Below, in pieces: positions 46,386-54,701 of a stretch of 64,000 nt of DNA. Below the pieces are notes generated by a model. That model had not been told where the DNA came from and made no database searches. It saw nothing but the letters and a program-made list of their open reading frames with translations. Location of the stretch: the NCBI RefSeq assembly GCF_902713615.1, contig NC_052159.1:11420018-11484017 (forward strand). Reading direction: 5' to 3'. Origin of the DNA: Scyliorhinus canicula (taxonomy: Eukaryota). Within the stretch, counting starts at the first letter, position 1; every line of letters starts with the position of its first letter. The position numbers and the translations under genes were made by a program.

Positions 46386-46979
46386 TGTAGTATTGTGTGA
46401 AGCAAATAATGGCATGATGGGAAAACTAGTCAAGTCTTCTTGGTACAAGTGAATTTAAACTGATTTTCATATAACCTAAGGCCCAGAATACAGAGACAGC
46501 CGAGGTCAGCATGTCTTGGGAACTGGGTGACTCTGAGAGTCTAGATAAGGCTTGGAGCCCGAAGTAGTCGTAATACATAACAAGCTGAACAACTATCTCT
46601 TCCTGTTCCTAAACAACTTCTTCCCTTACTTAAAACAAAGACAAGATAATAATATGAAACTCACGCCCCCTGGCGGTCAGCAAGGAGCCGCCATGGTAAC
46701 GATTATTACTTATGTTTTACTTTCAATCAAATTCCTGACCAAGCTGTATTCATGTTATCTTGATCCTATAATGTATAAGAATCGCCTTCTTTTCTGTACT
46801 AGCGCAGACTTGGGACGGACTCCGCAGTTTGTAATTGACTGCCTTCCGACTTTCCAAGTATCAGCCAATTTCTGCTAGCAGTTCTAATTAGTGAATAAAG
46901 TTCAGTTTTGCTTACCTAATGAATGCTGTTTGAATTTCTCTATCACAGTCAAGACGCGGGGAAAATATAAAATACAACA
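46386..46979 (+). repeat. ERV 5' LTR
   Basis: TGTAG...CAACA, AATAAA at 46894-46899. I see only one difference from the 3' LTR (cgcccc vs cgtccc). Confidence 0.97.
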
Positions 46980-46981
46980 TT

Positions 46982-46993
46982 TGGCGCTGCGAG
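46982..46993 (+). promoter_or_regulatory. Primer-binding site, resembling the complement of a tRNA-Ser(CGA)-type 3' end
   Basis: TGGCGCTGCGAG two bases after the LTR. The match breaks down after 12 nt, so tRNA identity is tentative. Confidence 0.55.
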
Positions 46994-47456
46994 AAAAAAT
47001 CCAATATCCTGGAGTGAGCTTCCATGAGGGACTGAGAAAAAGTGATCAAAGCCATGACCGGAGTAAAGAGACGGACGCCGGCACAAGGTAAGATTGACCT
47101 TTGTCTCTCTCTCTCTCGGATCTGTGCTGCGACCCCTCATCCCTGACGGAAGTAACTAAACAGGTGACGGTTCTCGAATCTAAATTTGACTGTGAGTACA
47201 TTTTTTTTGTGTAATTAGCCGGAGGTCAGGGACCTTGTTGATCTCGTTTTTCATCCGCATCAGATTTATACAGGCTGTCAATAAATTTTGGTCCGGGACC
47301 CTTTGATTAAGTTTTGGGGTCAGGGACCCTCTCAGTAATGTTTTGGGGTCAGGGACCCTGTCAGTAATTTTTTGGGGTCAAGGACCCTCCAATTTGATTT
47401 GGTACCAGAAATTTTGTTTGAGCGTTTTTTTGCCTGGGGCACATTTTACTGACATT

Positions 47457-48200
47457 ATGCGACAAACTTTAGACAAAACTAGTGGCAACTCCCCTCTATT
47501 TTTCATGTGTTTAGAAACCCCTTCTCAAGAACGTAATATTCGAAGATTAGCTGCAGCGCTGCTTTAAACAATAAATTAGGTAACGATATCTGGCCAGTAG
47601 GTAACACAGGGAACTTGGAACTTTGACAATAGCATTGATGCAGAAAAAAAAGCAATCTGGAGAAAAAAATGCCGGTTTCAAATTGTTTAATTTTACAGTG
47701 GAAAAAAAAACAGTTCACTTAACGCAACGAACAATCACAATGAGTTGGAGAGATAAAGCCCGCAAAAGAGATATTAATGAGTGTGTGAACGGTAAAGCGA
47801 AAAATTGGGAGACTTTAAAATTGTAATGTGAGCTTTGGTATGGAAAACAGTCAAGATGATAAAAAGCAATTCGGCAATAAGAAACCTCCTCTCACCAGAC
47901 AAATAGGGCTAGCTCGTAAGATTATAGGAAAGGAGGATCCTCCCAGTTGCTCTGGCATGCCGATGTTCCCCTATTCAAGCGATACGGGAGCCGAGGAGAA
48001 TTTGAACCCTGGACCCCACCCTCATTTTGCGCTCCCCGATTTTACAATTCCACTGTCCTAAGTCCTGACTCCCACTTCTGATCCCATTACCAATGAAACT
48101 CCTGCTAACGTATCCCCCTTAGCGACACGCACTCAGTCACAGACGCAAGCCGTAAATATCGAACAACCCTTCTCTACGGAAAACATGATAATTGACTAAA
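47457..48200 (+). pseudogene. First gag remnant (matrix region only)
   Basis: MRQTLDKTSGNSPLFFMC..., IWPVGNTG, SPLATRTQSQ. Stops and frameshifts. No capsid or NC recognisable. Confidence 0.6.
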
Positions 48201-49421
48201 AGGTGTTGATTAAAAGATCCACAATAAGGAAATTATAGAAGTGAAGTTAATAAGTTATCAATTTAGAAGCATGCTGGCAATAATGACTGGATTTTAACAT
48301 TGTTTTTGAACGAAATTTAGTACATCAGATGATGTTAACTAACTACTGCTTGGAATGTTGTACTGGCCTTATTATGATAACAAGTGGTTCTTCTGAAGGA
48401 CAACAAAATGTGTACTCGAATTGTTTTTAAACTATTGGCAAAACATTCATATTTCCTCTTGCAAATGTTCCCAAGCTTCCCAAAATGTTCCAAAGTTGTT
48501 CAGTTCACACTATATCAGTTTAAAAGAAAGTAACTTTACGAATAAGAGTAATTGAAATGTGAATAAGTTTTTAGATTGCGTGAAAAGACGTAAATGGCAT
48601 CACGCCAAGTTCTCCGCCCCTTAGATTCTGCAGGAAACATTAACCATTTCAGCAGACAGTTGGTCTTTTCTGAATTGACAAAGAAAAAATACTTCTCAAA
48701 GAATAGCTAATACCTCTAAAATTAATCAGTGCAAATTGACTTAAATGGAATAACACAGATAAAGTTTTCGAAAGAGAATGAAAAATTTTTGTTCAAAATT
48801 TGTCCGCAAGGACAAGGGCTGAATCCAAGAGAGAGAAAGAGAGACAGAGGAAGAGATTGAAGGAGAGAGAGAGCCAGCGACAGAGACAGGAACTGTTAGA
48901 GAGAGCGAAAGAGAGCGAGCCCGGGAGAGGCAGAGATGGAGAGGTAGACAGATAAAGAGAAAGAGCAACAAGAGTTCCAAAGACAGACAGAGTTATGTAG
49001 AGAGGGAGAGAGATAGATAAGAAAGAGAGGGAAAGAATTCATATTTCATTTTTCAGACTTTGACTTTAAAAATTATGTTTCAAGCTGTGATTATTTGAAA
49101 GAGGTAAAGAGATATCGATGCCAACATGGTCCTTGTTATTACCTGAAACCTTCGCGATAAAAGGTTCCCCTTAACTTTGTAAGGCGGGTGGCATAGAATC
49201 TTTACAGTGTCACCTTCGAGCTGTTAATTGGTTTGTACGGAGCGCGATTACTCCGTGATTTAAATTATAATCTCCTGCAGATACGGATAACTCTGCTTAA
49301 CAACACATAAACAGGGCAAAAAGCGTGCGGACCCTGACATAAAACATCACACACGTAATTTCCTTAATCAATTGTTAAAATTGTAATCGGAAGGACCATC
49401 TGGCATCAGACAAAGTGTGCA

Positions 49422-49700
49422 ATGGGTAAAACTTTAGATACAACTTTTTAAAATGGCAGCGTACTGCAAACGCTGGGTGAACAACTAAAGACCTATCAAC
49501 AGTAATAGAAGCTCAACAAGTGATTTAGGAAAATAATAGGGCGTCAACTGCTAAAAAGATAGTTGCTCTATGGAGGGAATATTGTCCAAAATTGAAGGAT
49601 GCTTCCTTGTTAGCCAGCTGGCAGGATAAAGAATTAAAATGGAGTATAGAATTGACAGGTCTTGAAAACGGAATGCGCATTTTTCATATGGAAAAGAACC
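49422..49700 (+). pseudogene. Second gag-like N-terminus
   Basis: MGKTLDTTF*, then AAYCKRWVN / TKDLSTVIEAQQVI*...KKIVALWREYCPKLKDASLLASWQ. Joined by deletion to the protease tail. Confidence 0.5.
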
Positions 49701-52700: not shown

Positions 52701-52870
52701 CACATCTCCCAGTAACGACAGGGACAGCCGTCCCTCGATATCCAGTGGTCAAACCCGGAGACCTCCTGTGGGTAAAAAAACTGGGACAGAAAGAAACTAG
52801 GACAACGCTGGAGCGGACCATTCCTCGTACTACTGACGACGCCAACATCGGTCAAACTTGAAGGACGTTC
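49730..52870 (+). pseudogene. ERV pro-pol remnant (PR C-terminus, RT, RNase H, integrase) with deletions and stops
   Basis: CKFGAVIQC, QYPL, SPCNTPILP, E*RLVQDLR (stop 50420-50422), LPQGFIHSP, YVDD (50738-50749), RNase H FYVVGS (catalytic D to V), SAQKAEL, YTDSRY, integrase QLDFIELP, SDNGPHF, ERANRTL. Confidence 0.92.
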
Positions 52871-52930
52871 AAGTTGGATACATCTATCCGATTGCAAGAA
52901 GATAGTCTCCAATCCAGACGAGAACACAGG

Positions 52931-54076
52931 ATGAAGATCTTCAGCATAATTTTTGGACTTTCTGGACTACTTAGCCTTAATGGCCACTCGGTAGTAAAAA
53001 AAAACGAACTAAACGAGACCTGCCTTCCAATACCTATTTACATATGTCATATCTTTACGCCGAAAAATTGAATGTTAGCAAGTGTTGGGTTTGCACCCAT
53101 ATCCCCATCCATTCAAGGGAAGGAATACCTCTCCAATCTCTCCCCTTTCGTACCGCAGAGACAGTTGAATGGATTTTACGACAAAATCAAACAGGCATCA
53201 GGGAAGATAGGGGGAATATGAAAATATGGAGATCTGTTGGCTATGACATGACTAAATTTTCAGCTTTGTATCAACCTACCTATAATCATGTCCTAACTCC
53301 ACCCTCCCTCACTGTCCACTCGTATAATGTTCAAGGTTCCGTATGTTTTAATAAATCAGGGAAAGGAAAGTTAATGGGGCAAAGTAGGTGCAACCTACCA
53401 ATATAATCCCCTGGATGACATCAGCTGATGATTTTACAGCCTACAATGGAACCTATTTCATATGCGGCACTAAAGCATATCCGTGGCTCCCCATTGATTG
53501 GACAGGATCCTGCTTTTTGGGATATGTCATACCCCAAATGCGTCGCCGATCCACCCTTAAGCACTCCCCCTCGCGAGCAAAAAGAACAATTTCTAAAACG
53601 GAACGGGCAAGGCATCCAACGAACTGATCAACATGGCCTCAGCATTGGAAAATCTGGCAAACGTAACGGCAACAGAAGCCAGGGACACTAGACAGGCACT
53701 GGCCGAGGTCTCTGCTGAGCTAGTGGCTGTCCGGACCGTGGCATTGCAAAATCGACTGGCTTTGGATTATCTGTTAGCCTCGCAGGGAGGAACGTGCGCT
53801 ATCATAGGCCAAGAGTGCTGTACTTACATTCCAGATGGCTCTGAAAATATCACTAACCTGGCCGACCATATTAAGAGACAGGCTGCTCAAATTCAAGAAA
53901 TTGGCAGTGAATTTCACGACTATAACCCGCCGGGTTGGCTAGGATGGTTGGGTCATGGATTATTTGACTGGATCTTTAAGGCCTTTCTTCTACTGCTACT
54001 AATACTACTAGGGATAGGATTGCTTGCCTGCTTGTGTAAATGCATTTTCAAACGAATCATGGATATACCTATTTAG
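52931..54076 (+). pseudogene. Gamma-type env remnant
   Basis: Signal peptide MKIFSIIFGLSGLLSL, CWVC (53083-53094), furin RAKR (53574-53585), ISD LQNRLALDYLLASQGG, CX6CC, TM anchor. Frameshifts and deletions. Confidence 0.92.
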
Positions 54077-54095
54077 CTAGTTGTCATGATATGAC

Positions 54096-54107
54096 AAAAG
54101 GGGGGAG
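54096..54107 (+). promoter_or_regulatory. Polypurine tract
   Basis: AAAAGGGGGGAG immediately before the 3' LTR. Confidence 0.9.
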
Positions 54108-54701
54108 TGTAGTATTGTGTGAAGCAAATAATGGCATGATGGGAAAACTAGTCAAGTCTTCTTGGTACAAGTGAATTTAAACTGATTTTCATATAACCTA
54201 AGGCCCAGAATACAGAGACAGCCGAGGTCAGCATGTCTTGGGAACTGGGTGACTCTGAGAGTCTAGATAAGGCTTGGAGCCCGAAGTAGTCGTAATACAT
54301 AACAAGCTGAACAACTATCTCTTCCTGTTCCTAAACAACTTCTTCCCTTACTTAAAACAAAGACAAGATAATAATATGAAACTCACGTCCCCTGGCGGTC
54401 AGCAAGGAGCCGCCATGGTAACGATTATTACTTATGTTTTACTTTCAATCAAATTCCTGACCAAGCTGTATTCATGTTATCTTGATCCTATAATGTATAA
54501 GAATCGCCTTCTTTTCTGTACTAGCGCAGACTTGGGACGGACTCCGCAGTTTGTAATTGACTGCCTTCCGACTTTCCAAGTATCAGCCAATTTCTGCTAG
54601 CAGTTCTAATTAGTGAATAAAGTTCAGTTTTGCTTACCTAATGAATGCTGTTTGAATTTCTCTATCACAGTCAAGACGCGGGGAAAATATAAAATACAAC
54701 A
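54108..54701 (+). repeat. ERV 3' LTR
   Basis: 594 bp, near-identical to the 5' LTR. Confidence 0.97.

Follow-up and report, generated by a model that had tools for sequence, protein, structure and literature searches.

Trans-complemented, non-autonomous endogenous retroviruses (ERVs) are known from koala recKoRV, bovine D-type elements and mouse VL30. In recKoRVs, which are recombinants of koala retrovirus and PhER, the ends of one retrovirus are described as enclosing an older degraded retroelement, with disrupted frames and many unfixed copies (Lober et al. 2018, PMC6112702). In cattle, ERVK[2-1-LTR] D-type elements are class II and short (6.8 kb); these defective elements are more numerous than competent ones and have been suggested to displace them, and the cattle report includes both competent copies and de novo insertions (PMC10924933). 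According to PMC4859993, mouse VL30 has no coding frames, carries identical LTRs in about half of its full-length copies, shows diverse TSDs over a long time span, and is packaged by heterologous MLV without env. Published shark ERVs are dated to more than 50 million years in the account of Han 2015 (PMC4422223), which gives LTR divergences of 2.4–3.3% and three near-complete copies for elephant shark CmiERV lineages II and III. As reported in PMC10435555, a screen of 2004 vertebrates placed an invading ERV in none of 13 cartilaginous fishes. Among open-licence papers, taken without supplement files 13–14 of PMC10435555, we found no report of the family described here or of a polymorphic shark ERV.

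The provirus studied here lies at 46386–54701 of the window, the 64,000-nucleotide stretch of Scyliorhinus canicula DNA that was analysed. It is very likely a trans-complemented, non-autonomous ERV of the known kind, with a backbone that we call family P and with gag, pro, pol and env all broken. The reading that we favour, and consider likely as a whole, is that it belongs, as an unfixed insertion, to a large chimeric ERV family without coding capacity, and was packaged, reverse-transcribed and integrated by a functional virus of the parent lineage. The family resembles recKoRV as described in all the respects given above, but it has two successive donors (Z, then W), carries most of pol and env as dead cargo, has LTR pairs from 96.5% to 100% alike and shows no intact cognate virus in the assembly. 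As in the cattle account, defective copies are in excess, here more than 100 insert-bearing loci against about 40 capsid matches, although the shark family is class I, 8.3–9.1 kb and chimeric, with neither competent copies nor de novo insertions shown. It shares with VL30 the lack of coding frames, the proportion of identical LTRs, the diverse TSDs and the long span; unlike VL30 it keeps env remnants, and the evidence leans towards a cognate helper. With the CmiERV lineages, compared by description only, it shares class I character in a cartilaginous fish and possibly an epsilon-like affinity. The features of the provirus are as follows.

46382–46385, + strand: 5′ copy of the 4-bp TSD, AGCT; occurs once in the empty allele
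46386–46979, + strand: 5′ LTR, 594 bp, TG..CA ends; one mismatch to the 3′ LTR (46666 C, 54388 T)
46982–46993, + strand: PBS, 12 nt, TGGCGCTGCGAG; complementary to the 3′ end of a tRNA-Ser-type gene and unchanged across all 20 young copies compared
46994–47456, + strand: family P leader, likely packaging signal; its 5′ part is poor in rare variants, and the packaging role is putative
47457–48171, + strand: family P gag remnant, matrix/p12, broken by frameshifts and stops
48162–48514, + strand: captured family Z env tail, PPT and U3; 80–85% to L131, L139 and L145, 90–94% in older defective copies
48514–48801, + strand: captured gag-like stretch; changeover from Z to W at a homologous stretch
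48802–49088, + strand: AG-rich stretch; partial family W match, 62–78%
49092–49721, + strand: captured family W leader end and matrix-like frame, internally deleted; 88–93% over 49092–49484
49741–49948, + strand: captured Z stretch; precedes RT in Z
49950–52910, + strand: family P pol, broken, with RT, RNase H and integrase remnants, by sequence comparison
52931–54076, + strand: family P env, broken; TLV_coat match, SU frameshifted, TM frame partly open
54096–54107, + strand: PPT, AAAAGGGGGGAG, directly 5′ of the 3′ LTR
54108–54701, + strand: 3′ LTR, 594 bp, TG..CA ends
54702–54705, + strand: 3′ copy of the TSD, AGCT, a perfect match to the 5′ copy

An earlier note, made from the letters alone, had pointed to the single LTR difference in 594 bp and the perfect TSD, and both are present. 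It had also listed an RT stop, large RT deletions, loss of an RNase H Asp and a frameshifted env, each of which we found by comparison with L040, a related copy that retains capsid and served as the reference for lesion calls. Relative to L040, homology to CA, NC and protease is absent over about 48171–49950, and RT has a stop at 50420–50422 and deletions of 258 bp at 50780 and 128 bp at 50916. Further downstream, the first catalytic Asp of RNase H is changed to Val at 51268, a second pol stop lies at 51811, integrase is frameshifted at 52083, 52590 and 52774 but nonetheless retains its D-D-E residues, and env has frameshifts and deletions at 52996, 53403 and 53598.

The provirus has class I (gamma/epsilon-like) features, namely TG..CA LTRs, a tRNA PBS, a PPT, a short TSD and gag-pro-pol-env order. 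The RT of L040 scored 325 bits against MLV, 168 against foamy virus, 75 against HERV-K-type and about 65 against HIV, and the family has a gamma-type env (TLV_coat) and an MLV-type integrase C terminus (MLVIN_C). gag and pro-pol share one frame with a single stop between them (the frames of L082–L085 stop at 3336 and continue from 3340). By RT pairwise scores only, WEHV-1 (360 bits, 43%) and Rauscher MLV (322 bits, 44%) are matched, and elasmobranch ERVs are closest, at 58–60% across most of the query. Sequence searches of Pfam and PDB left the extra domain that lies between protease and RT unmatched.

The earlier note took gag to lack CA and NC and the protease active site to be gone; the absence stood, but not as plain deletion or decay, since 1.8 kb from families Z and W stands in their place. 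It had overlooked that the element is built from three ERV families. Sequence comparison shows a recKoRV-like chimera of three virus families, with backbone ends from one virus and a middle from older degraded ERVs, later amplified. Older copies with the Z insert still hold NC and protease. Template switching by RT, in particles that contained RNAs from more than one family, would have placed Z DNA in gag first, and W DNA would have been acquired after Z. The W-derived matrix-like frame matches the family Y matrix at 55–57% in amino acids; it found no protein match among longer proteins, which is weak evidence. Two DNA searches with insert pieces gave mostly family members, and one of the 20 copies fetched from one search gave the Z donor. 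A captured host mRNA was considered as the source of the insert and abandoned, the donors being ERV families Z and W.

We sorted 101 loci of this family of more than 100 defective copies, chosen non-randomly for closeness to the window or for long frames: 47 carry both Z and W inserts (ZW), 24 Z only and 9 W only, 14 are capsid-bearing and 7 are unclassed. All 11 testable indels and both stops recur at other loci (the indel table has 13 rows, from which the reference copy's own indel and an alignment break next to a bigger deletion were dropped). Among insert-bearing copies covering each site, the 128-bp deletion was shared by 26 of 51, the 34-bp by 24 of 36 and the 102-bp by 16 of 38, the 291-bp and 258-bp deletions were rarer (2/42 and 1/51), and the stops occurred in 19/42 and 19/45. 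Indels of one or two bases may arise repeatedly and independently. The search for shared deletion junctions at independent loci that the earlier note proposed thus returned shared lesions on different contigs, which argues that the damage predates integration and disposes of its own counter-case, lesions unique to the locus; the exception is the RNase H change, which is private to this copy (0 of 48 others). A near-identical parent locus was not found among the copies compared, where the best other match reached 98% over 51900–52500 only, so the source copy of this insertion is unseen; in pol-env even the closest of the copies fetched is 2.9% divergent, against about 6 interior substitutions expected since integration.

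The insertion is unfixed. In run X18, which comes from another sample, a 268-nt contig crosses the unoccupied site, where AGCT stands only once, its bases 1–142 corresponding to 46244–46385 and its bases 139–268 to 54702–54831. Support for this allele comes from a single contig (depth 3.2) of a single sample, identified by its length, depth and coordinates, and the runs searched for this site did not show the filled allele. Taken together with the broken genes common to other copies, the empty site indicates that the provirus was likely copied in by means of proteins that a functional relative supplied. Measured against the ERVi definition of Wang and Han 2023, the locus shows insertional polymorphism (one contig in one sample), but has one LTR mismatch and broken genes instead of identical LTRs with unbroken gag, pro, pol and env. 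At the shark rate that has been measured, one mismatch is compatible with 0.03–6.7 million generations, over which about 6 (0.2–33) interior substitutions are expected. 'Recently or still active', as previously proposed, can therefore be kept only in a relative sense, since the integration may be millions of years old.

Mobilisation of a defective element in trans is very likely in our view, and the proposal of a non-autonomous lineage that keeps LTRs, PBS, PPT and leader and is copied by a helper is supported by the shared lesions, the near-identical LTRs and the conserved PBS and 5′ leader. If instead an old provirus had decayed in place, its LTRs being made uniform by gene conversion or by collapse of the assembly, lesions would not be expected to be common to loci on different contigs, nor an empty allele to exist. 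Moreover, among 23 other ZW copies with both LTRs recovered, all of them broken, the LTRs are identical in 10 and at least 99% alike in 20, and each pair has its own haplotype (the LTR-pair table covers the 33 of 101 copies with both LTRs and PBS within the fetched stretch). A perfect 4-bp TSD, present in 7 of 10 copies, speaks for mobilisation in trans. Decay in place would agree with the lack of one in the other 3, and with a CpG enrichment of between-copy differences (2.7-fold) near that of LTR-pair mismatches (3.2–3.4-fold), a similarity implying that most divergence arose in host DNA. We regard this account as very improbable. Still less credible is copying of ERV transcripts by LINE machinery (as in HERV-W-type processed copies) or segmental duplication, even though a few fetched copies lie in clusters and are built almost alike (C23, C25): the two LTRs are full-length, have TG..CA ends and come with a 4-bp TSD, poly(A) is absent and flanks vary among copies, and at this locus the full-length LTRs together with the empty allele refute such an origin.

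Given mobilisation in trans, a helper of the P lineage itself is reasonably likely. For confirmation the earlier note named an intact gag-pol copy with a related LTR or leader; relatives that bear capsid and have a related LTR do occur, but none of the 14 fetched from this assembly is intact. L040 retains CA, NC and protease homology and has LTRs 99.66% alike, with stops present. Its LTR falls inside the young defective range (U3 0.062, R-U5 0.034, against 0.14–0.25 for six other capsid-bearing copies), and 24 of its 40 private pol-env changes are third-position (P = 0.0005), an excess in one of eight copies tested, singled out afterwards (the other seven, 0.19–0.45). As a young copy joining selected pol-env to the parasite's LTR type, L040 points to a cognate helper. 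Alternatively, family X or Y may have cross-packaged the RNA of the same parasite, to which the W leader/matrix piece might add a packaging signal. Both families include copies with unbroken gag/pol/env (679/1306/647 and 657/1306/565 aa), LTRs that are identical (466 and 716 bp) and 4-bp TSDs; the capture of both Z and W implies at least two encounters of P RNA with RNA from foreign ERVs, and the W matrix is about 70% alike to that of Y in nucleotides. Yet X and Y RT is only about 66–73% alike to P in nucleotides, their leader and LTR have no blastn match to P, and they use primer tRNAs unlike P's. The P leader (46980–47285) is conserved, with 18 rare alleles against 33.9 expected (P = 0.002), whereas the W leader as a selected second packaging signal went unsupported (29 against 35.9, P = 0.14). 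We therefore hold cross-packaging by X or Y to be unlikely.

Under the favoured reading, a helper of the P lineage, the family would have jumped serially, with rests in host DNA from one jump to the next, and would have exchanged sequence by recombination with sister copies and with P genomes that bear capsid. The helper might be a P-type virus without an intact copy in the assembly, whether unfixed, lost or exogenous. It is conceivable, though doubtful, that a shark retroviral parasite has outlived the intact copies of its own virus, rides more than one retrovirus family and still inserts today; the Z and W captures would then be fossils of rides in other families' particles, and a retrovirus would now be active in sharks. 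The unfixed insertion, the large young defective family and the two open-frame families with identical LTRs allow continuing invasion of the germline in a shark to be tested directly with population reads. With this family, the displacement of helpers by defective elements, as proposed in PMC10924933, could also be examined over deep time, and recombination among distinct ERV families has left in it a dated record.

In young copies, the PBS and 5′ leader are conserved while the coding remnants drift: private coding changes include 69 synonymous ones against a neutral expectation of 71.4 ± 7.3. Among private changes we found no G-to-A context bias of the kind left by APOBEC editing. A first CpG count on private alleles gave weak enrichment and was dropped as biased against recurrent sites, and a matched method was used instead. 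The closest copy switches along the element and tree position differs gene by gene, as in a mosaic. Variants present in at least four young copies are 51% third-position (P = 5e-6), as expected if pol-env pieces came from selected genomes. Pairwise dN/dS among young copies is 0.36–0.48, a value below 1 that we explain by shared old variants and transition bias.

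The element is a class I ERV built on a backbone family that we call P, and its middle contains DNA from two other ERV families, Z and W:

46386–54701, provirus with LTR pair, PBS and PPT (594-bp LTRs with a 1-base difference; perfect AGCT duplication)
48162–48514, Z-derived env tail, PPT and U3
48592–48801, W-derived segment
49092–49721, W-derived leader end and matrix-like frame
49741–49948, Z-derived stretch preceding RT
middle of the element, Z-derived gag-like stretch

Pfam searches detected fragments of RT, RNase H, integrase and a gamma-type env, with no Pfam match to gag or protease. 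The closest RT relatives in the protein collection were catshark and skate sequences (58–60%), which points to a shark as the probable host. When we compared the element with L040, a capsid-bearing copy of family P, all of the lesions described in the earlier note were present. That note had also claimed that the lesions precede integration, and two results bear this out. At the LTR rate, approximately 6 (0.2–33) interior substitutions are expected since integration, whereas pol–env diverges by 2.9% from the nearest fetched copy. Moreover, 11 of 11 testable indels, as well as both stops, are found in at least one other locus, with the large indels recurring in 1 to 26 of 51 copies. Thus, the damage is older than the integration. 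The element is also a mosaic: it joins one deletion found in loci L001 and L008 with another found in L021, its best-matching copy shifts along its length, and its neighbours differ between the RT, RNase H–integrase and env trees. Template switching among sister RNAs packaged together would be expected to give such a structure.

We found no homology between positions 48171–49950 and the capsid, nucleocapsid or protease of L040. Both donor families traced to this region are broken in the copies fetched, and the W matrix matches family Y, another ERV family, at approximately 70% of nucleotides. In the Z as well as the W DNA, the donor order is reversed, so that a later donor part stands before an earlier one, and the capture junctions fall within short shared stretches. 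From established retroviral biology, capture may have occurred by RT switching between co-packaged RNAs. Older defective copies that carry only Z retain nucleocapsid and protease sequence, which indicates that Z was captured first and W second, and that the nucleocapsid–protease loss came later. The start of a family Z LTR at locus L118 (G000:C1, ~265.37 Mb) is occupied by a Gypsy-like LTR element 4.4 kb long, which has a 1195-aa frame.

The element belongs to a family with many loci in the genome. Proviral pairs as well as solo LTRs were among the LTR matches, none of which fell below 96% (40 scored of 1597 first-look candidates); an RT search gave at least 151 matches at 85% or more, and an insert-frame search at least 154 from 150 scored candidates, with some loci counted twice, all of these counts being lower bounds. 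Among fetched copies, a non-random sample picked by closeness or long frames, insert DNA was present in 17 of the best 20 RT matches (one carried capsid and two were truncated) and in all ten paired copies from the LTR search. Both LTRs were recovered for 23 other copies bearing Z and W inserts; the pairs were identical in 10 and at least 99% identical in 20, the oldest standing at 96.5%. At least six frameshifts were present in each of the 39 other insert-bearing copies with sufficient pol–env cover. In L001, L005 and L008, the LTR pairs are near-identical, yet a perfect 4-bp TSD is lacking. Among known systems, recKoRV is similar in build (PMC6112702), bovine D-type ERVK likewise outnumbers its helper (PMC10924933) and VL30 has a similar LTR-age pattern (PMC4859993).

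Pairwise dN/dS among 21 young copies was 0.36–0.48, which at first sight speaks against neutrality. Splitting variants by frequency, we found that single-copy variants were spread evenly over codon positions (35% third), that private changes included 69 synonymous ones against a neutral expectation of 71.4, and that a third-position excess (51%) was confined to variants found in at least four copies. All 20 copies compared share one PBS sequence, and rare variants in the 5′ leader reached about half of the expected number (P = 0.002). Recent selection has therefore been limited to cis signals. CpG enrichment was 2.7-fold in between-copy differences, close to the 3.2–3.4-fold in LTR-pair mismatches, which suggests that most differences arose in ancestors resident in host DNA. 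The lineage may have moved by serial jumps with long rests in host DNA between them; our search found no near-identical parent of the element. The PBS (46982–46999) matches a tRNA-Ser-type 3′ end over only 12 nt, followed by A's; L040 and all 20 young copies share this form. During plus-strand synthesis, copying of 18 tRNA bases would normally restore the PBS. A ~26-bp leader repeat (GGGTCAGGGACCC core) is present in approximately four units at 47290–47390 and forms long arrays in some older copies (L086, L107 and L109).

The insertion is unfixed, as seen in one low-depth contig from a single sample annotated as belonging to the same organism. This contig (run X18; 268 nt, depth 3.2) aligns through bases 1–142 to 46244–46385 and through bases 139–268 to 54702–54831, and is an empty site with a single AGCT. 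In run X20, from the same sample, a contig crosses the same edge, with only its near side displayed. The age of the insertion is loosely constrained: one LTR mismatch corresponds to 1.2 (0.03–6.7) million generations at 7e-10 per generation, the shark rate in PMC10587355, or, with the rate that PMC4422223 assumes, to 3.8 (0.1–21) million years. The retrovirus had been proposed to be recently or still active; the unfixed insertion falls short of showing present-day activity, as one mismatch allows up to 6.7 million generations and large shark populations can hold neutral insertions unfixed for very long. Invading ERVs, defined by Wang and Han (PMC10435555) by identical LTRs, intact genes and insertional polymorphism, do not include the element, and these authors list them in 0 of 13 cartilaginous fishes. 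In the literature searched, neither this family nor any polymorphic ERV of sharks was described. The kind of element is already known; this one has a two-step capture history and an unfixed insertion, in a group for which we found none in print.

The earlier note had named an intact gag–pol copy with a related LTR or leader as part of what would confirm its reading. Searching with the L040 capsid gave approximately 40 matches at 64% or more, followed by a fall to approximately 32% (150 scored of 451 candidates). A capsid-bearing copy with a related LTR exists in L040, but none of the 14 capsid-bearing P copies fetched had all frames open. L040 is the youngest of these (LTRs 99.66%); it shares its LTR type with the young defective copies, whereas its leader and matrix resemble those of the other capsid-bearing copies. 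Its private changes, 24 of 40 at third positions, show purifying selection on its own branch, L040 being one of eight copies tested. These features fit a functional P virus that was replicating at the same time as the parasitic element and recombining with it. A helper from the unrelated families X or Y stays a rival to this P helper, because the Z and W captures demonstrate past cross-family contact; some members of X and Y have kept gag, pol and env without breaks and carry identical LTRs as well as TSDs, but both families are distant from P and their primers differ.

Such copies of these two families are L091 (G000:C6, ~207.14–207.15 Mb) and L097 (G000:C10, ~10.42–10.43 Mb), in which open gag, pol and env frames go together with identical LTRs and a 4-bp TSD; they thereby show two of the three features of invading ERVs. 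Between protease and RT, the protease frame of L040 (P0003, residues ~155–225) contains an extra domain that had no sequence match in Pfam or PDB and that the window has lost by a deletion at 50092. Its two PHVTL motifs may correspond to the H-x-T pair of 2H phosphoesterases.

Elsewhere in the window, a 17-bp tandem array of ~1.2 kb lies at 29159–30400. Long inverted arms at 60781–62795 and 789–5092 (~500 bp flanking a 1-kb core, with shorter nested arms) are possibly DNA-transposon ends. By eye, translations gave a LINE-like RT frame of 495 aa at 25195–26679 (+) and Gypsy-like frames at 36059–39603 (−).
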